Below, in pieces: positions 2,240 through 47,035 of a stretch of DNA of 64,000 nt. The translations under genes and the position numbers were made by a program. Each line of letters begins with the position of its first letter. The first letter of the stretch is position 1. The DNA comes from Nanobdellota archaeon (GTDB taxonomy: Archaea > Nanobdellota > Nanobdellia > Woesearchaeales > GW2011-AR4). The notes beneath the pieces are model-generated. The model was not told the origin of the DNA, ran no database searches, and worked only from the letters and a program-made list of their open reading frames with translations. The DNA lies in contig JBBSWH010000001.1 of NCBI GenBank assembly GCA_038046385.1, positions 39,382-103,381 on the forward strand. The letters are read 5' to 3'.

Positions 2240-2350
2240 TGATAATGAATGGGCCTGACAGATGTGAACCAACCCTTTTGTGAGTTGACGACAAATATCA
2301 TGTGCCATTTTTAATGGCACGACCCGAATATGATAATGAATGGGCCTGAC
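2240..2350. mobile_element. Two-hairpin mini-insertion (71 bp) flanked by a 20-bp direct repeat duplicating the tRNA-Val 3' end
   Basis: tgataatgaatgggcctgac at 2240-2259 and 2331-2350; internal hairpin gtgccat/atggcac; core homologous to 4 other loci. Confidence 0.75.
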
Positions 2351-2454
2351 CAGATTTGAACTGGTGGCCTTCACCGTGTCGAGGTGACGTCATTTGCCGC
2401 CCGCAAACTCAGCAAATGCTTAATTTGCGCGGTACCGGACTAGACCACAGGCCC
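2341..2454 (-). tRNA. tRNA-Val(GAC), tentative, with ~41-nt intron in the D-loop
   Basis: Acceptor GGGCCTG/CAGGCCC+A, T-arm ACCAG-TTCAAAT-CTGGT, anticodon arm TCACC-TCGACAC-GGTGA. D-arm halves GTCTAGTCCGGT and ATGACG are separated by an insert with CCGCGCAAA/TTTGCGGGCGG pairing. Confidence 0.7.
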
Positions 2455-7292: not shown

Positions 7293-7414
7293 AATATAAA
7301 TGCGGGGAACTGATGCGCCCCAACCTTTTCTTATATAAGAAAAGCTTGACCAAAAGAAGTATGCTACGCAGTTGTGAGGTAAACCTCACTAAAGAAAATA
7401 TAATGCGGGGGAAG
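7293..7414. mobile_element. Two-hairpin mini-insertion plus relic 3' end of tRNA-Leu(UAA), the displaced original tRNA flank
   Basis: aatataaatgcgggg (7293-7307) vs aatataatgcgggg (7397-7410). The core 7316-7392 aligns along its length with the reverse complement of 40129-40214. tgcgggggaag (7404-7414) equals the last 11 nt of the tRNA at 16760-16770. Confidence 0.7.
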
Positions 7415-7493
7415 CACATTCCGCCCCTATTAGAATGCGTATCTTAAATTCCCTTTCTTATTTATATATCTTTTCATGTTACGTAGGGTGCTT

Positions 7494-7967
7494 TTAGTAT
7501 TTTTTGAGTATAGAGAGAATTTCTTCAACTTTTCTACTCCTCTCTAAAGAATCATTTTTTTGCTCTGGCAATAGATTTTGAAATATAACAATCATAGAAT
7601 TAGAAAGAATAAGCATATTGGAAAGGATAGTCTCCATTTCTTCAATGGTAGGGATATTTTTACGCATTAAGAAGAACCTCTTTTTATGTAAGTATTTGTA
7701 CTCTATATTCAGATGTGCCCAAATTTTTCTTAAGTTTTTTTGTATATCTATAACTTCTTTAAAAAATTCATTAGATATAACTTCTTTGATAAACATGTTT
7801 GTAAGTATACTTTTCCTAAACATTAGCTCTGTCTGTAACTTATTCAAACTTTCTTTAAATTTATAATATGGCTTAATCATAAACTGGTTAAGAAGCTCTC
7901 CAGTTATGTATACTACCACTCCCCCTATAATTGTTAGTGAAGCCGTTAAAAATTCTGATTCATACAT
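7494..7967 (-). CDS. Hypothetical protein, N-terminal TM plus helical domain
   Basis: 157-aa ORF in the integrated element. Confidence 0.5.
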   Translation of the reverse strand: MYESEFLTASLTIIGGVVVYITGELLNQFMIKPYYKFKESLNKLQTELMFRKSILTNMFIKEVISNEFFKEVIDIQKNLRKIWAHLNIEYKYLHKKRFFLMRKNIPTIEEMETILSNMLILSNSMIVIFQNLLPEQKNDSLERSRKVEEILSILKKY

Positions 7968-8032
7968 ATCTTAAAAAGTTACTAAGATTTATTAATAAGC
8001 TTTCCTCTAATTAGTGTCTTCTTAAGAATTAA

Positions 8033-8941
8033 TTATAGTTTTTTGTGTTCAAGTTGCCTGATACGATTTAAAATTTTTCCAACCTCTCGTGGCCGCATGA
8101 AAGCCATAAACAGTATAAATGGAATTATAATAAAAGTTGCCCACACAACTATGACATAAATCCAAGTATAAATAACTTCGAATATATTGTTAAATTTATC
8201 AACACTCTCAATAGTTACCGACATAACCAACCAGGTCATAATAAAAAATATGTTTGCTATGGTTATTTTATTTAAGAATCTCGAAACTCTTATTTTATGG
8301 TTCAAGTACTTAATATTGTTCCCCATATGCAAGAAGAGGTAAGCTCCCAAATAAAAGATAACTGATAAGCTAAATTTGAAACTAACTTTATCTGCTGAGT
8401 CTGCACCCCCATTTACTCTGAAAAATAGATTAATAACAGTTCCTAAAAATATGGCTAATGTAGTTAGAAATTCTAATTTAGACTTTAAATCCTTGACATC
8501 AACAGAGGCAACAACTCTTAGTACTTGAGTTTGTTGGACAGTGGTTTCTGGTTTTTCTTTTACAAAAAAAGCAACTACACTCAATAATAATCCCATCAAA
8601 ATGAACAAAAGCTCCAATTGTCTGTAGTATTTTACTTTTTCATTCAGATAAATATATTTATTAGTCAAAGGACCCATATTTTCTGCCAGATTTCTCGCTT
8701 TTAGGGCATAATTTGAGCTATTGATTAAGAATTTTGTATCGCTTTTATTCATGTAATAGATTAGAAAATTAAGGTCAGATTCCGAACTCCAAGAATTAAC
8801 AGCATCACGAACGTAATCTCTTGTAGTAACAAATTCTTCTGATGTGCTTTGATAGAAATCTCCAATGAAATGAAAAAATATCGATAAAGTAACAGCTATG
8901 GTAGAAAGTATAATTAAATTATTTTTTGTTAAGCTAACCAT
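8033..8941 (-). CDS. Hypothetical multi-pass membrane protein
   Basis: 302-aa ORF with several TM segments. Confidence 0.55.
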   Translation of the reverse strand: MVSLTKNNLIILSTIAVTLSIFFHFIGDFYQSTSEEFVTTRDYVRDAVNSWSSESDLNFLIYYMNKSDTKFLINSSNYALKARNLAENMGPLTNKYIYLNEKVKYYRQLELLFILMGLLLSVVAFFVKEKPETTVQQTQVLRVVASVDVKDLKSKLEFLTTLAIFLGTVINLFFRVNGGADSADKVSFKFSLSVIFYLGAYLFLHMGNNIKYLNHKIRVSRFLNKITIANIFFIMTWLVMSVTIESVDKFNNIFEVIYTWIYVIVVWATFIIIPFILFMAFMRPREVGKILNRIRQLEHKKL

Positions 8942-9147
8942 GATTTAACCACCTCACCACCCCTTAACTGTAGTAAATAAGGCTTGTTTTATTAATTTAT
9001 CCAAAAAATATATAAGAAAATAAGCACTGGACACCTATACGCAAAGTTTAAATACTTTTAAAATTAGGGTAGTATCAGGGTATTTCGGTATACGAAATAT
9101 CCAATTCAGTCTAAGTGGTGCGGTTTACGTAATCACTTAGACTTTTT

Positions 9148-9945
9148 TTAAAATCTGGGTTCTGGGAAAACTTTTACTTTAACTGATCCATCTATTACTA
9201 CGCTTCCTATTTCTAAAGTGCATATTGGCTTTAATATTTTTAAGTACCCTTCATTATAGCACTGTTTTTTTAAATTTGAACATAGGAAGCAGTAATAGGA
9301 TCTTTGAAAAGCATAGCAAATTAAATCAGCAATTTCATAAAATGATGACTTGGACATCGGTTCAATATTTAAATCTGCTAATATATTTGAAAAATCTTTT
9401 ACATATGTGGTTCCATTCTTCATTACATCTCGATGCACCCTTTTAATATTAGACGCTAATTTAGTTGAGCTATCACATAAATTTACAATCCCTAAAGAGT
9501 TTTTATTATCTCCTCTTCCCTTAATTATTTTTTGAAATTTCTCTAATACGAACTCGTAAGCTAAAAGATAAGGGTTTGCAGGATGTTTGTATTTTTTCCT
9601 TAGGTTATGATTATCAATAACTATAATTATTGGTTCAATAGGCATCTTTGCAATGAACTCATACAGTTTCAACATTATTTCTTTGCCTTGTTGATCGGTT
9701 AGATACCCCTTATACCTATTTCTGTTGTTCCTGGAGATATGATTTAACTCTACAGCATGGGCTGGAGTAGTTTTAAGCTCTTTAGGGAATAGTGACTCTT
9801 TAAATTCTTTGAAAATCCTACTTTGATTAAAATAATCTTCTTCTTTTATAATTAAACCACCTAAAACAAAGAAATCAGATTGCTCTCTTATGTTAGGGTT
9901 ATCAATACGTGAACTTCCCGATTCATCTAAGTATAAGAGATACAT
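9148..9945 (-). CDS. DUF3800-like protein
   Basis: N-terminus MYLLYLDESGS matches the DUF3800 hallmark (hydrophobic-x-DESG); 265 aa. Confidence 0.6.
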   Translation of the reverse strand: MYLLYLDESGSSRIDNPNIREQSDFFVLGGLIIKEEDYFNQSRIFKEFKESLFPKELKTTPAHAVELNHISRNNRNRYKGYLTDQQGKEIMLKLYEFIAKMPIEPIIIVIDNHNLRKKYKHPANPYLLAYEFVLEKFQKIIKGRGDNKNSLGIVNLCDSSTKLASNIKRVHRDVMKNGTTYVKDFSNILADLNIEPMSKSSFYEIADLICYAFQRSYYCFLCSNLKKQCYNEGYLKILKPICTLEIGSVVIDGSVKVKVFPEPRF

Positions 9946-10210
9946 TATATAGGAAATTTTTTTGGTATTTATAAAGAATACTGTGTTACGCCCCTTTAAT
10001 GAAGAGGTATATGCACGCTTATATTTAAAATATTTTATTTTTTAGGTTTAAATATAATAAAAATTAGGAAAAAGTTTTGGTTATAGGATAACGCCTCGGT
10101 TAAATATATTTGAAGGCCAACCATCCTCCGATTGCAAAAGCTATCAGGCCATAAGCAATAAGTCGAAGTATAAACCTTTTATCCATTCTTTTTGGGCTGT
10201 CGAGTTAGTA

Positions 10211-10609
10211 TTATCTATTAATTGAAAAAAAACTCTCACCTTTTTTATAATTTTTTACCCTTGTAAACTTTTTTGAGTTTGGATAAATTTTAGTAAATTG
10301 ACAATCATCTATATTATCTCCCTTAAATGATATAGTTATCTCATCATAACTGCTCGGATATGTCTTAATTGCAAACTTATGAGCTGTTTCAAGATTATCT
10401 AATGCTATATGAAAAAGCCACTCAATAACAGCTTTTCCCCCCCATTTTTCTTTGATATAATCTTCGTAATCTTTAGTATAGGAATGTCGTTCTATTCTAT
10501 GATTGTATTTTAGCCATTTTCGAGGTTCATCTATCCATTGATGAAGTTCTTGAAAAGTCTGTCCAGTTCTACACTCACTTACTTCCATATGAAATTTTAG
10601 AGACGGCAT
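10211..10609 (-). CDS. Hypothetical protein
   Basis: 132-aa ORF, SD ggagg upstream, His-rich N-terminal half (ELHQWIDEP..HRIERH). Confidence 0.5.
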   Translation of the reverse strand: MPSLKFHMEVSECRTGQTFQELHQWIDEPRKWLKYNHRIERHSYTKDYEDYIKEKWGGKAVIEWLFHIALDNLETAHKFAIKTYPSSYDEITISFKGDNIDDCQFTKIYPNSKKFTRVKNYKKGESFFSINR

Positions 10610-10756
10610 CTTTAATCCTCCTAAACATTTAATTTTTTGGGCTGAAAAAGTAAAAATGAAGGGATAGTTTTTCGTTAGAATAACTTACCTTACCTTTTCC
10701 AGCTTTCCAACATAAAACCATTATAAAACATATTATAAAAGCTTTGCGACATAAAA

Positions 10757-11002
10757 TTAAGGATAATCAATACAAGACTCAGTATTTTCATCAGTACATC
10801 TATTAAATCGTCTACATGCTAAAAACCAGCCTTTGAAGAACCCATATTTCTTAAGTGCCAATATTGCATGATTTGAGCATGAAGGATAAAACCTACAAAT
10901 TATGTTTCTTTTTTTATTAAAATTTCTACCAATTTTCCCGTGCCATACTTTCTTTATAAAAAATATTGATATTAAAATCAAGAGATTATTTTTTCTTCTC
11001 AT
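10757..11002 (-). CDS. yidD: YidD-like membrane protein insertion efficiency factor
   Basis: CRFYPSCSNHAILALKKYGFFKGWFLACRRFNRC matches the YidD CRF-P-(T/S)CS...G...R..RC pattern. Confidence 0.65.
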   Translation of the reverse strand: MRRKNNLLILISIFFIKKVWHGKIGRNFNKKRNIICRFYPSCSNHAILALKKYGFFKGWFLACRRFNRCTDENTESCIDYP

Positions 11003-11294
11003 ATATACTCACTTCTTCAGTGTAATTCTGTGAACCACATTCTGGACATCTTCGTAAATTATCAAGTGAATCTTTAGATGCACCTACATTTCTTTGAGCT
11101 TGTAGAGCTGCACCAGAATTACAACAACACGCATTAGACATTTGGTTTAAAGCAGCAACACCTTTAGCACTTTCAATTTCTTTTTCTCTTTCTGATAAAG
11201 AATGCCACACCTTACCACATTCATTACATTTTCGTTTAAACTCTTTTACGTGCTTGTTCTTATCAAAATCCGCTTCCGAAATCTTTTTGCTCAT
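10986..11294 (-). CDS. Zinc-ribbon protein
   Basis: CNECG ... CPECG cysteine pairs; 102 aa. Confidence 0.55.
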   Translation of the reverse strand: MSKKISEADFDKNKHVKEFKRKCNECGKVWHSLSEREKEIESAKGVAALNQMSNACCCNSGAALQAQRNVGASKDSLDNLRRCPECGSQNYTEEVSIYEKKK

Positions 11295-11318
11295 TTTTCT
11301 AAAGATTATTTAAATATT

Positions 11319-11849
11319 TCAACACATACCATTGGTAAAACTTATCAGTTCTTTGGCATCAGCAGTGTATAGATATATATCTTTGCAAGATTTCATTAAT
11401 TCTAACCTGACGACTGGGATACCACCATCACATTCTTTTGTTTTGGATAGGCACTTATAATAGGCTTGATCTTTTGTTAAAACTTTTGGAGCTTTTGAGG
11501 TTTCATTAACCTTTTGCTGTGGCATGAAGTTAGAAATGAGAATCATAGCAGCTATAACTATAATGCCCCACAAAAAGAATTTTTTATAGTTTGGGTTTTT
11601 CTTATCTATTAAATTTGTTTTACTTACGCTAACATTTTTATTAATTTTATGTTCTCTTGACTTAAAATTCAATTTCTCTTTAAAGAACTTTCGTGATGGT
11701 GGAAGTATCACAAGTCCTATTGCGAGTGAGGTAGTTCCAACAATAAAAGATGAATCTGAAAAATTTCCTAAAGAAGCCAAAATAAAGATAATCCCAAAAA
11801 TCCAGCTAAAAACTCCTCCTAAAGTAATTTTTTTAACATCTTCTACCAT
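11319..11849 (-). CDS. Membrane protein
   Basis: 176-aa ORF with 3 TM and a Cys-containing C-terminal domain. Confidence 0.5.
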   Translation of the reverse strand: MVEDVKKITLGGVFSWIFGIIFILASLGNFSDSSFIVGTTSLAIGLVILPPSRKFFKEKLNFKSREHKINKNVSVSKTNLIDKKNPNYKKFFLWGIIVIAAMILISNFMPQQKVNETSKAPKVLTKDQAYYKCLSKTKECDGGIPVVRLELMKSCKDIYLYTADAKELISFTNGMC

Positions 11850-11881
11850 TAACTTACCACCACACTTCTATATCCATTTTT

Positions 11882-12556
11882 CTACGTTGACCTTAAGTTA
11901 ATATTAAATATATCGTTAATCTCACTATTGGAAGCAACAACTATTTTCAAGTCTTCAAGGTTTTCTGGAATATCAAACAAAACAAAACCTCTTTTTTTAA
12001 TGCCTGGGTTTATAGCATCACCAAACCCTGAAAATAAGGTAAAACTCTCTCCATTGTAAGTTCCAGTAGCATCATTATCACTAAGAAACTCCCTTCCTTG
12101 AATATCCTCTAATTTCATTAAAGTATTATCAAACTTAGCTGCCTTTTTAGCTAAATTTTCAACTTCTACTTCTATAATTAAATAAGTGCCGTCGGCTACT
12201 TGCATGCCACTAAACATTCCACCAGAAAAAGATTTTAGTTCTTTATTGCTTAAAAATGTCCACTTAAAATCTCCGGCCACTATTTCATCTTTAAAATTGT
12301 ACGTTACATTTCCAAAGAATTTTTTCTTACAATCTATAATATTGCTTACAATAGTAGATTCATCAGGGCAGACATATTGTATTTTTTCCACAATCTCAGT
12401 TTTAATTTCAACCTTTGGTGGACAAGAATTACAATCAAGCTCTTGGCACTTTGTAGAAGGACAGGCAGTTTCTTTGCATTCTGGACACTGAGGAACTGCT
12501 TGAGTACAAGCAGTAATAAACAACAATCCTATCAACAATAAAGCATAAACTTTCAA
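11882..12556 (-). CDS. Lipoprotein with Cys-rich linker and DUF4352-like beta-sandwich domain
   Basis: Signal plus lipobox FITAC; CPECKETACPSTKCQELDCNSCPP; C-terminal ..GTYLIIEVEVENLAKKA.. pattern. Confidence 0.6.
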   Translation of the reverse strand: MKVYALLLIGLLFITACTQAVPQCPECKETACPSTKCQELDCNSCPPKVEIKTEIVEKIQYVCPDESTIVSNIIDCKKKFFGNVTYNFKDEIVAGDFKWTFLSNKELKSFSGGMFSGMQVADGTYLIIEVEVENLAKKAAKFDNTLMKLEDIQGREFLSDNDATGTYNGESFTLFSGFGDAINPGIKKRGFVLFDIPENLEDLKIVVASNSEINDIFNINLRST

Positions 12557-12618
12557 ATTAAATACCCCCTAATAGATAATTTTTGAAGATGGCTTTAAAT
12601 AATTTTCTATCCTCTTAA

Positions 12619-12663
12619 TATTACGCTGATTATCACGCTTTCTTTTATTCTGATTATTACGCT
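12619..12663. promoter_or_regulatory. Direct-repeat operator candidate upstream of the wHTH gene
   Basis: ctgattatcacgct (12626-12639) and ctgattattacgct (12650-12663), plus attacgct at 12619-12626. Confidence 0.4.
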
Positions 12664-12671
12664 ATAGATAT

Positions 12672-12926
12672 ATGGATGACGAGTTAAAAATATTCTTAGC
12701 AAGAAGCAAGCTTAGAAGTAAGATTTTACAAGAGTTAGAAGAAAAGCCTCAAATAGCTTCTTTTTTGGCAAAAAAGATTAAAAAGCATAGAGAAGTTATA
12801 AGCAGGGTATTTTTGGATTTACAGAGAAAAAAGTTAGCTGTATGCACAAATTCAAAAGATTCAAGCTTTAGGTATTACAAAATAACAGAGCAAGGCAAAA
12901 AGGCACTTAAAGAGTTAAGAGTTTGA
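12672..12926 (+). CDS. Winged-helix transcriptional regulator (ArsR/TrmB-like)
   Basis: 84 aa; ..RSKILQELEEKPQIASFLAKKIKKHREVISRVFLDLQRKKL.. Confidence 0.6.
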   Translation: MDDELKIFLARSKLRSKILQELEEKPQIASFLAKKIKKHREVISRVFLDLQRKKLAVCTNSKDSSFRYYKITEQGKKALKELRV

Positions 12927-13093
12927 ATTTTCAAAATCTGACAAAAATTTCTGACAAGCGGTAGCTTTACCATATAAGAGATAAAAAATTCTACCCCCAC
13001 CCCCTATATGAAGTAATACTACTTCTATATTCTACATCCTATATAAGTCAGCACAGAAGTATTTATATAGTAGGCTTACTTTATTTATGAAAT

Positions 13094-13291
13094 ATGGAAG
13101 AACTAAAAGGAAAGAAAGTTAAGATTGTAACACTCAATTACTTCGAGACTAAGCAGAATGGGTTAATCAAAAGGCAGTACAGGGTTAGTATTGCTCCTAA
13201 GATTATAGAAAGCTTAGAACTGAAGGCTCACGATAAGCTCAAAGTATGGGTTAACAAGGCAAAGAAGCAGATTAGAATGACAAAATTATAA
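13094..13291 (+). CDS. AbrB/SpoVT-like small DNA-binding protein (tentative)
   Basis: 65 aa; RVSIAPKIIESLELKAHDKLKV resembles the AbrB/MazE swapped-hairpin motif. Confidence 0.45.
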   Translation: MEELKGKKVKIVTLNYFETKQNGLIKRQYRVSIAPKIIESLELKAHDKLKVWVNKAKKQIRMTKL

Positions 13292-13334
13292 TCATAAGAC
13301 TGCTGGCATAGACCAGCAGCTTGGAGTAAACAAA

Positions 13335-13496
13335 ATGGCTTGCGACCAATTAGATACTCCACAGGAAGCAGTTCCTGTGGCTATTAAAAACCTTTCTGGA
13401 CAAGAAAAGGTATTCAAAGACCAAAAGGCTCAGGATAGATTTGAGTACCTTGTAAGAACAAGGAATAAGGTTTGGGCAATTGTAAAATTCAAATAG
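13335..13496 (+). CDS. Small hypothetical protein (53 aa)
   Basis: Manual ORF MACDQLDTPQEAVPVAIKNLSGQEK...; below the track cutoff. Confidence 0.3.
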   Translation: MACDQLDTPQEAVPVAIKNLSGQEKVFKDQKAQDRFEYLVRTRNKVWAIVKFK

Positions 13497-13779
13497 AATT
13501 TTTTTTATTTTTCTTTTTATCCGATTCTTTTGTAAAATATGTTAGTAACTGTCCCATCATTGAATTTGGACTTATTCTTAGGGCGAGGCTTTCTAATGGG
13601 TATTTTTGGGCATTTAATGAAGATTTAAACTTTCCAATGTCTGATTTTGGGCCAGAGCTTCTTTCTCTTGAAATTTGAGCAAGCAGTTCTTTCCAATTTG
13701 AAGTTCGTTCTCTCCACTTCCTTCCTTCTGCTGCTATCTCAGGATTACCCTTTGGATTATTCCACCTTTTACCTATCAT
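13489..13779 (-). CDS. Hypothetical protein
   Basis: 96-aa ORF; competes with an antisense 68-aa ORF. Confidence 0.35.
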   Translation of the reverse strand: MIGKRWNNPKGNPEIAAEGRKWRERTSNWKELLAQISRERSSGPKSDIGKFKSSLNAQKYPLESLALRISPNSMMGQLLTYFTKESDKKKNKKNSI

Positions 13780-14057
13780 TTTTTGGTTTTGGAAGATAGT
13801 TCGTTTGGTTATTATCGATAAGTTATGAATATAAGTATTATAATCATTCTTCCTTCTTCAATAGGGCTATTATTTTTCGGTTTAGGGCTTCAAGTTGGTT
13901 AAGTTTATACCTTACCCAATCCTCAAAGTTTAACCCTTCTTCTTTTTCTTCCATTTTATAAATAATATAATTATTATATTATTGAGATGTATACTATGTA
14001 CTACGTACTGAACGTGAGATAGTGTCAAATAACATTGATGTTATGATAATATCCATA

Positions 14058-14462
14058 TTATTGTTCATGTAGTTTTGGTTTAACTTTATTCAATAAATAT
14101 TCAAATTCTTCATCTGAAAGGTCTTTTCCAAAGTTTTCGTAAAACCCTTGTTTTTGACCTTCAAAGAATTTTCTGTCTCTCTCAATAGCCTGTAGAGCGT
14201 TCTTCAAATATGGAATCCAATTTGAGTTAAGTTCTACTTTGATTTCTTCTATGCGACTTCTGCCTTTTAGTTTCTCTAATTCTTCACTCTCTTCTCTCAG
14301 TTCTTGCTGTCTTTTTTCTATTTCCTTATCAGTAAACAAATTGCTATCAATCAGTTTTCTGATATATTGAGATCTGTCCTTGCCAAGAATATTCATTCTG
14401 GCTATCTGCTCTGGTGTTAGCGTTATGCTGACATTAACAAATCTTGAGTGGTATTGTTTCAT
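14058..14462 (-). CDS. Ribbon-helix-helix (CopG-like) protein with coiled-coil tail
   Basis: VSITLTPEQIARMNILGKDRSQYIRKLID RHH pattern. Confidence 0.6.
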   Translation of the reverse strand: MKQYHSRFVNVSITLTPEQIARMNILGKDRSQYIRKLIDSNLFTDKEIEKRQQELREESEELEKLKGRSRIEEIKVELNSNWIPYLKNALQAIERDRKFFEGQKQGFYENFGKDLSDEEFEYLLNKVKPKLHEQ

Positions 14463-14655
14463 TTTTCTCCAGTTTTTTACGAATAAGTGAGCTTAAGTCT
14501 ATGCCGAGTTGTAAAGCCTCATGTTTTAATTGCAGTAACCTATCGGCTTCTAAACGAAAAGCTAAAAATTCTGTCTTCTTTTGGATATGATTGGATTTTT
14601 TCTCAAAGCCAGGGTGATAGTATTGTTTTTGCATAGTTATCACTACGTTATACAT
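14434..14655 (-). CDS. RHH-like small protein
   Basis: LAFRLEADRLLQLKHEALQLGIDLSSLIRKKLE. Confidence 0.5.
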   Translation of the reverse strand: MYNVVITMQKQYYHPGFEKKSNHIQKKTEFLAFRLEADRLLQLKHEALQLGIDLSSLIRKKLEKNETIPLKIC

Positions 14656-14780
14656 ACCTTTTTATTTCAGAATTAGCTACCCTTTATTGCTTAGGTTTGG
14701 AAGCTAATTCCTTACTTAATTCTTGCTCTGCCTCCTCTGTCAAGGAGGCTATTCTTTTAATTATATTATTATAAACTAAG

Positions 14781-14921
14781 TTAGGATTTTTCATTTTCTT
14801 TTACTGCCATTTGAATTAGTTGAAAAACAAGGTTGCTAACTGACCTACCATCTTTTTTTGCTTTATTTTTTATCTTTTCAGCAAGTTCATCTGAAATAAT
14901 AGTTTGGAGTTTTTTACTCAT
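14781..14921 (-). CDS. RHH (CopG-like) small protein, 46 aa
   Basis: Manual ORF MSKKLQTIISDELAEKIKNKAKKDGRSVSNLVFQLIQMAVKENEKS. Confidence 0.45.
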   Translation of the reverse strand: MSKKLQTIISDELAEKIKNKAKKDGRSVSNLVFQLIQMAVKENEKS

Positions 14922-15010
14922 GCTAATCGAAATGAGTATAGTGGATTAATATATAAAGAGTGATTCAATGGCAAGTTATTTGTAACACTTCGCACAAGTG
15001 CTATATTTTT

Positions 15011-15406
15011 CTAACCGGTTAGAAACCGGTTTCCACTTTTTGAAAAGTATGGGAAAGATGGAACGCGAAATCGATTTCGCAAATTGAAGCAATATGGCAA
15101 AAACTCAAATGCCAACCGGTTGGCGAACCTAAAACAATATGGTAGGGTGGGACCTGAGCATTTGACAAACCGGTTTGTCAAATTGCAACCGGTTGCAAAA
15201 TTTGAAGAAATATGGGGATGGGACTGAAAATCGATTTTCAAGATTGAAACAATACGGAATTAGGTTGCTTATAATATCTCTTTTGGTGCCGATTTTCTGG
15301 AAATCGATTTCCACTTCCAAAAATTGTTTTCGCTTTTGTCGAATCGATTCGACAAAACCAAGTAAAAATGTCAAACCGGTTTGCCATTTTGTCAAATCGA
15401 TTTTAC
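15011..15406. repeat. Array of 11 short palindromes (AAAYCGRTTT cores) interleaved with 5 TTGAARNAATATGG motifs
   Basis: Perfect palindromes at 15011-22, 15022-33, 15065-80, 15111-24, 15163-80, 15183-98, 15225-40, 15299-312, 15337-54 and 15372-83; one imperfect at 15391-406. Confidence 0.85.
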
Positions 15407-15428
15407 ATTTACTAAATATCTAAATAAA

Positions 15429-16703
15429 CTAATTCTTTAATTCCTTAATCTCCTTCTGTAGTTCTGAAACTATCTTAAACAACTTTTGTACCTCTGGGAT
15501 CTGCATAAAATTATCATATTTTTGCATTTGATCTTGTATCTTTGTTCTATCTAAGGGCCTCTTGCAGTTGTTGCACGTTTCAGAAGTAAACCCATTTTTT
15601 ACATTACAGAATAAGCAGTCTTTGATTTTTGGCTGCAATTCCTTATATTTTTCATCCTGAACTAATCCTCTTTTTACCAGCTCAATCTTAAAGGATTCAT
15701 CATGCTGGCTTAAATCATAAGTTTTGAGCTGTTTGTTAGACGTCCATCTTGCAGCGTGCTGTATTTCTAAATCACTATCCCCTCTTAATCTCCGGAAAGT
15801 TACTCCATTTCGCTTTAGGGAATAAGCAGTCACGGGCTTTTCTATTCCAAGATATTTACAGGCTGTATGTATCTTGTTGTTGATGTTTTTAGGCTTAAAT
15901 TGTTGCCCAAATTCTCTGTCACTCAAATTGACGAATAGAAAGGCATCTTTATTCTTCTTAAGCGGATGTTGCTCTAACCATTTTATAAGATAAGGATAGC
16001 TATCTATACATTGCAAAAATCCTGTTCCTTCTTTTCCATGCTCAGAAATCCATATCTTAGCATAGTTATCATAAAGCTCGACATCTTTTACTTTTGTGTA
16101 AAGAATTTCTTGTGGTCTTCCTAAACTTTCCAATGACAAAGTTAGATAAAACTGCATCCTTGGATCATTAGAAAAGAAACTAACTACTTTTTCAAACTCT
16201 TCAAACGTAACCTTATCACCCCTCCTTTTTTCTTTGCTTTTGTCAATTTTAGGGCTTAAATGCCTAACGGGATATGGCACAAGTGTATCGTCAATTCTTT
16301 CTCTTTCATCCTTTTCAGGAAAAAGCACCTTCCACATATGCTTTAGGTCTCTTATGAAATCAGATTTGCTCTTTGGAGACTTATAGGAAGTATGCATAAA
16401 AGATACAATGCTGTTGACATCCTCTCTTTCCAAATCCTTTAAGTCCTTGTCAGTTGAATTGCAAATAAGCCTCATACTCATAAGAAGCCGATTTCGCCTA
16501 ACATAGCTAAGATCTTTAGCTTCAAAAACTTTGAATAGCTGCTCGAAATAGACTAAATTATCCTTATTCTTGCAGTAGTACTTACCTCTCTTAGTTACTT
16601 CCTGCCTTTCTTCAGGCTTTACAACAAATTGATCCAGGTTTTTCTTAAATCTCCCGTAAATCCTTTCATTATGGTATATATCGTCTTCTGCCATGGCTAT
16701 CAT
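15429..16703 (-). CDS. Tyrosine recombinase/integrase with C-terminal zinc ribbon
   Basis: 424 aa; HAARWTS...LKTYD (HxxR...Y catalytic box); CLFCN..CNNC; lies directly downstream of the tRNA-Leu 3' end. Confidence 0.8.
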   Translation of the reverse strand: MIAMAEDDIYHNERIYGRFKKNLDQFVVKPEERQEVTKRGKYYCKNKDNLVYFEQLFKVFEAKDLSYVRRNRLLMSMRLICNSTDKDLKDLEREDVNSIVSFMHTSYKSPKSKSDFIRDLKHMWKVLFPEKDERERIDDTLVPYPVRHLSPKIDKSKEKRRGDKVTFEEFEKVVSFFSNDPRMQFYLTLSLESLGRPQEILYTKVKDVELYDNYAKIWISEHGKEGTGFLQCIDSYPYLIKWLEQHPLKKNKDAFLFVNLSDREFGQQFKPKNINNKIHTACKYLGIEKPVTAYSLKRNGVTFRRLRGDSDLEIQHAARWTSNKQLKTYDLSQHDESFKIELVKRGLVQDEKYKELQPKIKDCLFCNVKNGFTSETCNNCKRPLDRTKIQDQMQKYDNFMQIPEVQKLFKIVSELQKEIKELKN

Positions 16704-16759
16704 TCTCCTGCTTCCGACTTATATACTCTTGTTAAACAACGCATTCATTTAGAAAATAG

Positions 16760-16878
16760 GTGCGGGGGAAGGGATTCGAACCCCCGAATCCACTAAGGAA
16801 CAGGATAGCTTATCTCGCTTACAGCGCGAGTGTTCCATCTTAAGTCCTGCGCGTTTGGCCAGGCTTCGCTACCCCCGC
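16760..16878 (-). tRNA. tRNA-Leu(UAA), class II, ~32-nt intron in the anticodon loop
   Basis: GCGGGGG/CCCCCGC+A acceptor, CAGGA-CTTAAGA..[intron]..TCCTG, long variable arm, GGGGG-TTCGAAT-CCCTT. Confidence 0.8.
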
Positions 16879-20687: not shown

Positions 20688-20835
20688 CCCCGCGTAGCTT
20701 AACGGCGGAGCGCTCGGCTGTGAGACTTTAAAGTCTGGCTAGAGATGCGCTCTAAGACCTTACGCTATTCTAGCGAGGAATGATAGAGAGCCAGTCGTGC
20801 CCGGGAGGTTGCTGGTTCAACTCCGGCCGCGGGGA
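20688..20835 (+). tRNA. tRNA-His(GUG), tentative, with ~75-nt intron at the canonical 37/38 position
   Basis: CCCCGCG/CGCGGGG+A acceptor, D-arm GCTT..GAGC, CTCGG-CTGTGA[intron]C-CCGGG, GCTGG-TTCAACT-CCGGC; no encoded G-1. Confidence 0.7.
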
Positions 20836-20933
20836 TTTTGGGTTAGCGTCATTGCTAACCCTATATTTTTCTATTAAATACCACTGGACATCTCCGCCTA
20901 AGATATTTAAAGCAAAACATCTTAATTCTCATT

Positions 20934-21557
20934 ATGAAAACAAAAATATTGAAATATGGTTTTAAGAAACTAACAAAAGCTAAATCCAGAATCATTGCAC
21001 ATTTGATAGGAGACGGCTGTGTTTACAAAAGCAATCATGATTATAACATTAAATATGAAGTAAAAGATCAAGAATCTTTAGATTCTTTTGAAGAAGATTT
21101 GATTTCCGTTTATGGCTTAAAATTAACTAAAGGATTTAAAAATTCCGGATTTACTGGCAAGCCCATCCCTTTTATAAGATTAAGATCAAAACTGGCTTAT
21201 GAGGACTTATTGCGCTACGCAACCTATAATTCAAGAGATTGGAAAATTAATTCAATAATTCCCCCTTCATCTAAAACAATAAAAAAAGAATTTCTCAAGG
21301 CATTGTTTGATGACGAAGGAAGTGTAATAATAAAAAGCAAAAATAGCGAAGTCAGGCTCTATTCAATAAATTTGGACGGCTTAACACAAATACAAAAAAT
21401 ACTGCTGGATTTTGGTATTAACACAAAGATAACTCCAGGATACGGCTTGAAAAGGAATGTGTATGCCGTAATAATTAAGGATTTAATGGCATTTAGGAAA
21501 AAGATAGGATTCAATTTAAGGAGAAAACAAGACAAACTTGATACCTTAAAATTCTAA
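20934..21557 (+). CDS. LAGLIDADG homing endonuclease, free-standing
   Basis: IAHLIGDGCV and LKALFDDEGSV double LAGLIDADG motifs; 207 aa. Confidence 0.8.
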   Translation: MKTKILKYGFKKLTKAKSRIIAHLIGDGCVYKSNHDYNIKYEVKDQESLDSFEEDLISVYGLKLTKGFKNSGFTGKPIPFIRLRSKLAYEDLLRYATYNSRDWKINSIIPPSSKTIKKEFLKALFDDEGSVIIKSKNSEVRLYSINLDGLTQIQKILLDFGINTKITPGYGLKRNVYAVIIKDLMAFRKKIGFNLRRKQDKLDTLKF

Positions 21558-39659: not shown

Positions 39660-39771
39660 AATGAAAGGAACGCATTCAACTTTTTGCAAAAAACTTGACC
39701 AAAAGCATGAAAGTGCTATATTTGCTTCGCAAAATAGCACGAGAGGGCTACAATGAAAGGAACGCATTCAA
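39660..39771. mobile_element. Two-hairpin mini-insertion flanked by a 20-bp direct repeat duplicating the rpl37e start
   Basis: aatgaaaggaacgcattcaa at 39660-39679 and 39752-39771; the 72-bp insert has hairpins ctttttgcaaaaag and gtgctat..tttgcttcgcaaa..atagcac. Confidence 0.8.
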
Positions 39772-39986: not shown

Positions 39987-40118
39987 GCGGAGGTGCCGGA
40001 GTGGCCAAACGGGATAGGCTTAGGCGAGGCATCTTTTTGGTGTAAAGAGCCGAAAGGCAATGACTTTGAGACACCTATTAGCTTAGTGCTTACGCAGGTT
40101 CGAATCCTGTCCTCCGCA
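39987..40118 (+). tRNA. tRNA-Leu(UAG), class II, ~45-nt anticodon-loop intron
   Basis: GCGGAGG/CCTCCGC+A, ATAGG-CTTAGG[intron]A-CCTAT, long variable arm, GCAGG-TTCGAAT-CCTGT. Confidence 0.75.
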
Positions 40119-40231
40119 TTCATTTTCATTAGTGGATTCACAATCCACGACTGCGTAGCATGGTTTCTTTGGTCAAGCTTTCTTTTTATAAAGAAAGGTT
40201 GGTGGGAACCCTTACTCCGCATTCATTTTCA
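40112..40231. mobile_element. Two-hairpin mini-insertion flanked by a 17-bp direct repeat duplicating the tRNA-Leu(UAG) 3' end
   Basis: ctccgcattcattttca at 40112-40128 and 40215-40231; hairpins gtggatt/aatccac and ctttctttttataaagaaag. Confidence 0.75.
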
Positions 40232-46850: not shown

Positions 46851-46938
46851 GGGCCCATAGCTCAGCCTGCTTAGAGCACAAGACTCTTAAGAATTTGGAG
46901 TTATCTTGGGGTCAGGGGTTGAAATCCCCTTGGGCCCA
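46851..46938 (+). tRNA. tRNA-Lys(CUU) with ~13-nt anticodon-loop intron
   Basis: GGGCCCA/TGGGCCC+A, GCTC..GAGC, CAAGA-CTCTTAA[intron]-TCTTG, AGGGG-TTGAAAT-CCCCT. Confidence 0.75.
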
Positions 46939-47035
46939 CTTATTTTTCTATCCGTGCAATAAAATTGCACTTGATTCCGCACTCAACTGACGGAACAGTT
47001 GGTTCGACATCCCCTTGGGCCCACTTTATTTTTCT
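46924..47035. mobile_element. Two-hairpin mini-insertion flanked by a ~26-bp direct repeat duplicating the tRNA-Lys 3' end
   Basis: atccccttgggcccactt(t)atttttct at 46924-46949 and 47009-47035; hairpins gtgcaat/attgcac and caactg/cagttg. Confidence 0.8.

Follow-up and report, generated by a model that had tools for sequence, protein, structure and literature searches.

How does a stretch of archaeal DNA come to carry the end of a tRNA gene twice, with two small hairpins between the copies? The question is raised by E1, an insert behind the gene for tRNA-Val(GAC) in a 64,000-nt stretch from a Nanobdellota archaeon (GCA_038046385.1, contig JBBSWH010000001.1, positions 39,382 to 103,381 of the forward strand); the whole of this stretch was analysed and is called the window below. 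Our answer, which we hold with moderate confidence, is that E1 is a copy of a small, gene-less, non-autonomous mobile family derived from bulge-helix-bulge (BHB) introns, and that it was probably inserted via an RNA intermediate. The family is found in Woesearchaeota-like DPANN archaea and is related to their BHB tRNA introns, from which it probably descends. The analysis placed the window in contig CAYHVO010000003.1 of GCA_964360275.1, a metagenome-assembled genome from Hainich groundwater. Judged by lysyl-tRNA synthetase (74–79% amino-acid identity), the closest relatives of the window, whose GC content is 30–41%, are metagenome-assembled genomes of Candidatus Woesearchaeota (DPANN). Sequences used for comparison are designated by L numbers.

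We begin with the anatomy of E1, which lies on the minus strand. The tRNA-Val(GAC) gene directly 5′ of it (2341–2454, minus strand) has an intron in its D loop; it was read from the sequence, matches Rfam weakly (25.9 bits) and aligns with its ortholog in L243. As the earlier note on this locus had reported, the 20-mer TGATAATGAATGGGCCTGAC occurs exactly twice, at 2240–2259 and 2331–2350, an arrangement found in none of 100 shuffles; the full exact repeat is 21 nt long (2239–2259 and 2330–2350). The right-hand, proximal copy is the genuine end of the gene, as had also been stated: in the sense direction it comprises the final 10 nt of the tRNA (GTCAGGCCCA, tRNA positions 64–73, at 2341–2350) followed by 11 nt of trailer (TTCATTATCAT). 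The distal copy duplicates both the tRNA end and the trailer. Between the copies lies a core of 70 nt that is free of open reading frames (ORFs) and contains the two hairpins previously noticed. Read in the sense of the tRNA, it consists of 10 nt of filler, hairpin 1 (GTGCCAT-taaaa-ATGGCAC, 2302–2320), a spacer, hairpin 2 (CAACTC-acaaaa-GGGTTG, 2270–2287, assigned to subfamily B) and a tail, GTTCACATCT (2260–2269). The tail resembles a T loop in which A58 has become C, with a T stem that is one G short. A little beyond the distal copy, at about 2196, two Logan assemblies of the same samples (L021 and L022) both end 44 nt before the repeat, which may reflect population variation close to the element.

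The window contains four other inserts, each with its own repeat, as the earlier note had proposed; over all five, repeat lengths run from 17 to 27 nt. E2 (7293–7427, minus strand) has its proximal copy (b) at 7397–7427, hairpin 1 at 7374–7389, hairpin 2 at 7321–7348 and its distal copy (c) at 7293–7321, the repeat being about 17 nt long with two indels. E3 (39660–39771, minus strand) lies between the LSM and L37e genes, with 20-nt repeats at 39660–39679 and 39752–39771, hairpin 1 at 39713–39740 and hairpin 2 at 39677–39697. Its right repeat includes the ATG of L37e (at 39753; the protein begins MKGTHSMGKK...) together with the six codons that follow; its left repeat opens a 31-codon ORF (MKGTHSTFCKKLDQKHESAIFASQNSTRGLQ*, 39660–39752) whose stop overlaps the real L37e start (cAATGA). 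E4 (40112–40231, plus strand) follows tRNA-Leu(UAG) (39987–40118) and has 17-nt repeats at 40112–40128 and 40215–40231, hairpin 1 at 40132–40148, hairpin 2 at 40174–40201 and the tail GTGGGAACCCTTA at 40202–40214. E5 (46924–47035, plus strand) follows tRNA-Lys(CUU) (46851–46938); its repeats of 26/27 nt (46924–46949 and 47009–47035) enclose hairpin 1 at 46954–46970, hairpin 2 at 46984–47001 and the tail GTTCGAC at 47002–47008. The inserts had been said to occupy four of six tRNA genes, a count that must be revised: E1, E4 and E5 each stand behind an intact tRNA (Val, Leu(UAG) and Lys(CUU), respectively) that is contiguous upstream of the element, E2 stands behind a displaced 3′ fragment of tRNA-Leu(UAA), and E3 sits in the first codons of L37e.

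Did these segments arrive by insertion? Empty counterparts of filled sites were found in relatives for E1, E3, E4 and E5. The closest relative found, L146 (GCA_016187465.1; LSM protein 80–81% identical), has the gene order Holliday-junction endonuclease / LSM / L37e / tRNA-Leu / DUF5679 / HAD / M29 / PTH2 in common with the window. At the E3 site it carries one copy of ...TTAAATGAAAGGAACACCATCAATGGG, and at the E4 site its tRNA-Leu leads directly into the trailer; both sites are empty in L147 and L150 as well. An ortholog of tRNA-Lys without E5 is present in L010. The E1 locus is syntenic with L243 (AI-2E transporter 64% identical, ORF220 48%), where the transporter gene begins 145 nt after tRNA-Val with no element between them. 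Because an element could not already have held 20 nt of L37e coding sequence, the repeats were made at insertion; because the E3 repeat spans the L37e start codon, they are target duplications and not att sites. The five inserts are real insertions with true target duplications. At its 5′ end, the tRNA-Leu of L146 has a small insertion of another kind: upstream of the gene, positions 10555–10600 read GCGGAGG-caatc-TCACG-ttgtt-CGTGA-CCTCCGC-tcacaaagttt, a duplicated 5′ acceptor strand with a hairpin.

Whether the five inserts are kin was assessed by pairwise Smith-Waterman scores against dinucleotide shuffles. The notion of a single five-member family survives as far as architecture goes, the feature that all five have in common. 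By sequence they form two groups, E2/E3/E4 (E2–E4, z = 19.6; E2–E3, 5.4; E3–E4, 3.3) and E1/E5 (z = 6.8), and similarity between the groups is no higher than that of shuffles. A two-hairpin descriptor by itself performs modestly (5 hits in the window against a shuffle mean of 1.1 and maximum of 4); the significance comes from the exact flanking repeats (17–21 nt, about 100 nt apart), which are beyond chance. None of the five elements is overlapped by an Rfam 15 match, even with the threshold relaxed to E ≤ 5.

Further copies were sought in public metagenomes with a pattern for the 3′ hairpin of E2–E4 (subfamily A), TTTGGTCAAGYTTT-N4-16-AARGTTG. This hairpin, TTTGGTCAAGC-stem-GGTTG, proved widespread, occurring at no fewer than 120 metagenome loci, other Hainich wells and many Joint Genome Institute samples among them. 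About 115 of the 127 matches listed form the hairpin, with one conserved G-G mismatch. Pairing in the helix reaches 97% over 68 distinct copies, and 80 double-change cells were counted where shuffles gave 22 (0/500); pairs outside the fixed search pattern show 14–21 double changes each, values that 0/500 shuffles reach. A covariance model, R1, built from the metagenome copies alone with the window copies left out, recovered E4 (55.5 bits, E = 9e-12), E2 (55.2 bits, E = 1e-11) and E3 (42.8 bits, E ~1e-8). Sequence flanking the hairpin is otherwise not conserved among the metagenome copies. E1 is related to the element of L244 (14060–14165, homologous to its hairpin 2 region; z = 10.2), in which an E1-type hairpin 1 (GTGCCAT...ATGGTAC) precedes a variant of the widespread hairpin (GATCAAAC...GTTTG) and then E1's hairpin 2. 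Only through this composite copy are the two subfamilies connected by sequence. The GTG...CAC form that hairpin 1 had been said always to take is not universal in relatives.

The metagenome copies have the same general build: the 5′ hairpin varies, the 3′ hairpin is conserved and closed by CAA.../...TTG, and a short tail comes last, the whole being set between target copies of 15–61 nt. Behind tRNA 3′ ends, the architecture seen in the window recurs in L216, L174, L185, L168, L190, L244, L221, L263 and L187, the last with three tandem units; tandem arrays also occur in L203 and L215. Other copies with long exact repeats lie in the ends of protein genes (61 nt in L203, 32 nt in L196, 20 nt in L217, 16 nt in L199), and two successive elements in L203 have left three copies of the target segment. 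L180 carries a copy at the start of L37e, like that of E3; its repeat has a sequence of its own, and hairpin 1 shows a compensatory change. Copies truncated at the 5′ side, consisting of the 3′ hairpin only, measure 41 nt in L199 and 62 nt in L196. Without repeats, copies are found inside tRNA genes as introns in L211, L166, L218, L243 and L260. The two junctions differ in character: the 3′ side is tight, with the hairpin, a tail of 0–9 nt and next the repeat, a few bases being shared in many cases, and at the 5′ side there are 0–16 nt of unrelated filler. The targets of one subfamily (ATCGTTCC - hairpin - ATTGCATAST - 3′ hairpin) are tRNA-Arg, a second tRNA and a protein gene at its 3′ end, a spread over unrelated targets that speaks against att sites dedicated to one target each.

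Within 4 kb of 120 copies there is no recurring ORF family or mobile-element protein, the neighbours being housekeeping genes, and a scan of viral contigs gave chance matches only. Neither BLAST nor the hairpin descriptor detected copies in some 300 kb of related Woesearchaeota or in 20 kb more of the same contig; given its absence from that much sequence of the nearest relatives, the motif is patchily distributed. The idea that the repeat always ends at a transcript terminator (a T run) fails in the metagenome copies. A search for repeats up to 8 kb apart returned one complex locus, L220 (1–1760; also in L197 and L219), where a segment of about 100 nt is duplicated around a 1.5-kb insert with ORFs that, by eye, resemble a HicA/HicB toxin-antitoxin pair. 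In the second copy of this segment, which we suspect to be part of a structured RNA, a 52-nt stretch is replaced by a unit with the conserved hairpin.

As an internal control, the window contains an island with genuine att-type repeats. Positions 7415–16760 (minus strand, about 9.3 kb, GC 0.30–0.33) are an ordinary integrated element at tRNA-Leu(UAA) (16761–16878), with a tyrosine integrase beside the tRNA (15429–16703; Pfam PF00589, PHROG integrase) and DUF3800 and DUF4352 proteins. It is flanked by the exact 11-nt repeat CTTCCCCCGCA, at 16761–16771 (the 3′ end of tRNA-Leu(UAA)) and 7404–7414. Unlike the repeats of the small inserts, this one stops at the discriminator base and is followed by different trailers in its two copies; neither hairpin of the inserts is present at the ends of the island. 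Might such an integrase have moved the inserts in trans, as mini integrative elements whose repeats are att sites? The earlier note had named an att-type origin of this kind among its possible explanations, and it is true that the island lies in the same window, that the target of E2 is the distal att of the island, which E2 abuts, that tRNA 3′ ends are hit from the T loop onward, and that tandem arrays exist. However, E3 duplicates the 5′ end of L37e (start codon and six codons, single-copy in relatives), the repeats take in host-specific trailers, and one subfamily inhabits different, unrelated targets; the island arms have nothing in common with the hairpins, and no integrase recurs near other copies. 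Circles of 40–110 bp would, moreover, be poor substrates for such an enzyme. We consider this explanation very doubtful. Inside the island, just downstream of the integrase stop (15429, minus strand), positions 15000–15400 are dense with the short palindromes AAACCGGTTT, AAATCGATTT and CCAACCGGTTGG in repeated units about 73 nt apart (also 160 nt); they could be an array of binding sites or an origin.

What, then, is the conserved hairpin? A link to archaeal tRNA introns, which the earlier note did not anticipate, emerged from the relatives. L211 has an ortholog of the window's tRNA-Lys together with an E5 copy that is 95% identical, and the D loop of its tRNA-Lys holds a 46-nt insert, built on the conserved hairpin, that the window gene lacks. 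Alignment places the insert between AGCCTGC and TTAGAGC, boundaries that fall after the second base of each 3-nt bulge in a predicted BHB with the central helix GCCU/GGGC (parsed by eye). In other D-loop introns, the 4 nt after GGTTG are complementary to the exon (GAGC/GCUU, GGCU/GGCC, CUGC/GCGG and CCGC/GCGG, likewise by eye). Two orthologs have true T-loop introns at the exact repeat boundary: tRNA-Val in L243, with ACCAG-TTCA-[AAT]...GGTTGG-TGGA-[AGT]-CTGGT, and tRNA-Lys in L010. Both genes (L243 3217–3415, L010 1345–1496) have three introns, in the D loop, the anticodon region and the T loop.

A script that looked for BHBs, defined by 3-nt bulges, a central helix of 4 bp and an outer T-stem helix no shorter than 4 bp, predicted one between the T arm of the E5 tRNA and the tail and distal repeat (AGGGG-TTGA-[AAT] / TCGA-[CAT]-CCCCT). 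Such T-arm BHBs are predicted in E5, L211, L185, L168, L190, L216, L174 and L187, and the splice product would have a normal T loop, T stem and acceptor end. The central helix covaries with the T loop (TTGA with TCGA; TTCG with TGGG; TTCA with TGGG, TGAG or TGGA). Because a BHB is predicted to form, the distal repeat of these copies, formerly described as a stranded duplicate, would be a spare 3′ exon reachable by splicing. The distal end of the core had also been likened to a decayed T arm; this does not hold as worded, and is better rendered as the 3′ half of a putative BHB (E5, E4) or as an element tail that resembles a T loop (E1). The outer helix of the BHB has decayed in E4, as has the spare exon. 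In E1 the tail is not complementary to the T loop of tRNA-Val and the spare exon has lost one G; E1 is therefore no longer spliceable, or never was. The E5 host, tRNA-Lys(CUU), is itself unusual: its T loop, TTGAAAT, has G56, and its D loop, AGCCTGCTTA, has C at the usual site of G19, as in L211. C56 is nearly universal in tRNA T loops, and the pair looks like a swapped 19–56 tertiary interaction, to judge from the sequence.

Upstream of each element in the window the tRNA is complete, so that the element does not have to be removed to give a functional RNA, as a BHB intron does; only the homologous modules in L211, L166, L218, L243 and L260 interrupt the mature RNA in this way. A strict BHB scan recovered the canonical anticodon-loop intron of tRNA-Leu and few element copies.

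Could the inserts be former introns that stayed where they were? The core of E1 would then be an old T-loop BHB intron of tRNA-Val that has been bypassed, the upstream copy of 3′ exon and trailer, at the 5′ splice site, being new and the distal copy old and decaying; the new copy might have come from partial conversion with a cDNA made from the spliced precursor, for example, or from a tandem duplication in which one of the introns was then lost. The true T-loop introns at the repeat boundary in L243 tRNA-Val and L010 tRNA-Lys suit this history. So does a MAFFT alignment in which the end of the L243 T-loop intron, its 3′ exon and its trailer match the end of E1 and the distal copy, with similar trailers (TTAATTATAA vs TTCATTATCA). 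At the intron's 3′ end (CAAAAGG(G)TTGGT) the match to E1 covers 13 nt (z = 2.7); the E4 end matches better (z = 5.0). Moreover, the unusual T loop (TTGA) of the tRNA in front of E5 finds its complement in the element's tail, as expected had the two co-evolved in a working intron, whereas the tail of E1 has no such complementarity to its T loop. Three relatives have neither intron nor element at tRNA-Leu(UAG), so that E4 is a gain, and in protein-gene ends with duplications of 16–61 nt (E3, L180, L203, L196, L199, L217) an intron is implausible. The occurrence of one subfamily in unrelated targets also speaks against a bypass. We regard the bypassed intron as an unlikely, though serious, account of E1. 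Insertion and bypass could both occur, and the repeat-flanked state looks like an intermediate between intron-less and intron-containing genes, in either direction.

It might also be asked whether the inserts move at all on their own account, or are functional modules of the tRNA unit: an alternative 3′ exon, a processing or termination signal, or a promoter-like palindrome. The conserved, covarying hairpins, the 95% identity of E5 in two genomes and its predicted BHB speak for such a function, but the distribution is patchy, sites are empty in close relatives, the spare exons of E1 and E4 have decayed, and copies stand at unrelated targets and in tandem. A promoter role could draw on the copies directly upstream of start codons and on the antisense strand of hairpin 2 in E2 and E4, which resembles the local promoter box AACCTTTTTAAA; this match is missing in E1, E3 and E5, and the motif is not enriched in the window. 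A functional module without mobility seems to us very improbable. In one hairpin subfamily (L173, L231, L252, L256 and L232), the sequence CAAGCTTGACGAGTTCTT is complementary to the hairpin's 5′ strand, and the unit ends ...GGTTGTATG right at the start codons of different genes; this subfamily may supply a promoter or a leaderless start.

If the elements are mobile, how would they move? Two sets of features led us to an RNA intermediate. The inserts share the ends of excised introns (7–9 nt, hairpin, tail of about 7 nt); and their 3′ junctions are precise and their 5′ junctions ragged or truncated, with no inverted ends, no nearby enzyme and with tandem arrays. We propose that a nick in the DNA would receive a copy of an excised intron-type RNA with a defined 3′ end, made either by target-primed synthesis or through template switching; the machinery would act in trans and is not encoded nearby. 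Such copying would leave microhomology at an exact 3′ junction and raggedness or truncation at the 5′ one, and the duplication that it made would be long and of variable length. An element landing a few bases behind a tRNA would give a duplication that reaches back to the T loop; the upstream copy would keep the tRNA intact, and the downstream copy would be a spare 3′ exon with its trailer. In well-preserved copies such as E5, tail and spare exon would pair with the T arm, and the insert could double as a T-loop intron. E1, with its tail mismatched to tRNA-Val and its spare exon one base short, would be an older or a transposed copy.

A further trait points to RNA copying. Archaeal tRNAs carry Cm56, m1I57 and m1A58, modifications that disturb reverse transcriptases. 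In E1, E5, L244 and L221, differences between the repeat copies cluster at tRNA positions 56–58: A58 is changed to C in E1 and E5, and L244 and L221 have one or two extra bases between 56 and 57. As these are the modified T-loop positions, the differences suggest that RNA was copied. In its boldest form the proposal is that archaeal BHB introns spread as retro-elements, their excised RNAs being copied at nicks in the manner of short interspersed nuclear elements (SINEs), with intron gain as an outcome; we offer this form tentatively and think it improbable as it stands. The 15–61 nt would then be duplicated partly by copying the target gene's modified transcript, with errors at 56–58 as a result. 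The arrangement of tRNA, element and spare exon would be a neutral intermediate, in which the gene still works and BHB splicing could already reach the spare exon, and loss of the upstream copy would turn it into a bona fide T-loop intron.

The same junctions can be set against a DNA transposon-like process, in which an enzyme makes widely staggered cuts (a casposase/Cas1, a transposase of the IS1630/IS1634 type, or whatever makes other long-duplication insertions), one of them in an exposed hairpin loop such as the T loop. Long, variable duplications and the preference for T loops fit this process, which has precedents in IS1630 (19–26 bp) and in bacterial gene insertions (PMC2853133). Yet the five copies have no terminal inverted repeats by eye, there is no transposase or Cas1 nearby, ragged 5′ junctions are paired with conserved 3′ ends, and the range of 15–61 nt is wider than that of any single known enzyme. 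We judge staggered cutting clearly unlikely, and we prefer BHB-intron-derived elements that are inserted via RNA.

Several observations weigh against this preference. The 64-kb window encodes no reverse transcriptase, transposase or Cas1, and none stands beside any copy. E1 itself cannot form a BHB, the covariance model of the widespread hairpin misses both E1 and E5, and the tie between E1 and the intron family consists of shared architecture, one composite relative (L244) and the 13-nt match to L243. When the test for a BHB half right after the hairpin was relaxed and applied to all copies, 42 were positive, no enrichment over controls (26–44); T-loop copies alone show the BHB. The search pattern fixed part of the hairpin, and of the at least 120 loci most are on contigs without determined taxonomy. 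The signal at positions 56–58 was noticed post hoc and lies close to the junction. Finally, E3 and L180 occupy the same target, with repeats that are identical within each genome and differ at 3 sites between the genomes, a pattern that needs either independent insertion or gene conversion.

How do these elements compare with known systems? They are not ordinary insertion sequences (IS) or the miniature transposable elements with inverted repeats known as MITEs, as the earlier note had recognized: they are ORF-less insertions without terminal inverted repeats in the five copies, no transposase is encoded in the window, and the target duplications are long and variable (15–61 nt) instead of a fixed 2–10 bp. 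The casposase-like integration that had been raised as a possibility is disfavoured by the lack of terminal inverted repeats, the lack of Cas1 in the window and duplications that vary widely, compared with about 14–15 bp for casposons. Like the palindrome-associated transposable elements (PATEs) of IS200/IS605 and the repetitive extragenic palindromic elements (REP/REPIN), the inserts are small, ORF-less and hairpin-bearing; those elements, however, insert without target duplication and have end hairpins that are alike, whereas here the duplications are long and hairpins 1 and 2 are unrelated. With tRNA-targeted integrative elements (the SSV/pNOB8 type, bacterial islands) they have in common the duplication of the tRNA 3′ part from about the T loop on and tandem accretion, but they lack an integrase and a conserved att core, their repeats hold host trailer or coding sequence, and one subfamily has many different targets. 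We conclude that they are not MITEs, integrative elements, casposons or PATEs, since each of these classes fails in a defining feature that was tested. By eye, no C/D-box or H/ACA features and no tRNA-like fold were found in the core.

Closer likenesses lie elsewhere. Target-primed reverse transcription of SINEs and long interspersed nuclear elements (LINEs) likewise involves ORF-less elements, a 3′ stem-loop, variable duplications, no inverted repeats, precise 3′ and ragged 5′ junctions and machinery in trans. Our elements have SINE-like junctions in that their duplications vary, their 3′ end is conserved and their 5′ end is truncated or padded with filler. They differ in having no identified reverse transcriptase partner and no poly(A) tail, the likeness being one of junction anatomy. 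To our knowledge, no SINE/LINE-like retroelements have been described in Archaea. Long variable target duplications, in many cases reaching into the 3′ ends of genes, are on record for IS1630 (19–26 bp) and for gene insertions in bacteria, whereas archaea yielded none (PMC2853133); those are kilobase-sized IS with a transposase or restriction-modification cassettes, in contrast to a hairpin element of 40–110 nt. In Caldiarchaeum, a tRNA-Thr is disrupted by a recombinase-bearing element, and duplicated tRNA fragments have been linked to intron gain (PMC3293823); that element is 1.8 kb long, encodes its recombinase and duplicates the 5′ fragment. Literature searches gave no description of small hairpin elements with the features reported here.

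BHB introns are the nearest kin. In relatives, true introns of the D loop and the T loop have this hairpin as their inner helix, and related sequences occur at different tRNAs. Unlike BHB introns, the elements lie outside the mature tRNA, are flanked by a long gene-end duplication and are found in protein-gene ends as well. We know of no gene-end duplications of this kind reported for BHB introns. The elements are accordingly classified as mobile and BHB-intron-like. For the Thermoproteales, a "transposition" of BHB introns has been proposed from sequence similarity, without a mechanism (Fujishima et al. 2010, reviewed in PMC4090602).

Some remaining points concern the tRNA genes of the window. 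Four were placed by Rfam with one more weak match, and the sixth, tRNA-Leu(UAG), by eye. ARAGORN is blind to tRNA-Val(GAC) because of its intron and finds no tRNA in the window because the tRNAs have non-canonical introns; it misses nearly all tRNAs in this clade. At 20688–21557, one tRNA has introns of great length (148 nt); behind it stand the perfect hairpin GGGTTAGC-gtcat-TGCTAACCC and an ORF for a LAGLIDADG-type endonuclease that is free-standing (20934–21557); no duplicate of the tRNA end was found there.

The element family bears on how archaeal BHB introns get from one gene to another. One structured module is seen in three states, namely as a working tRNA intron, as a repeat-flanked insert behind a tRNA, still able to form the splice motif, and as a plain insertion in a protein-gene end, and these states look like intermediates of intron gain or loss. 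They come with testable signatures: junction anatomy, duplication length, errors where the tRNA is modified, and alleles with and without the insert. The family also explains the stray duplicated tRNA ends in compact DPANN genomes, which confuse the annotation of tRNAs and att sites. If the retro-element proposal is true, it would amount to SINE-like retrotransposition in Archaea, together with a worked-out route of intron gain.

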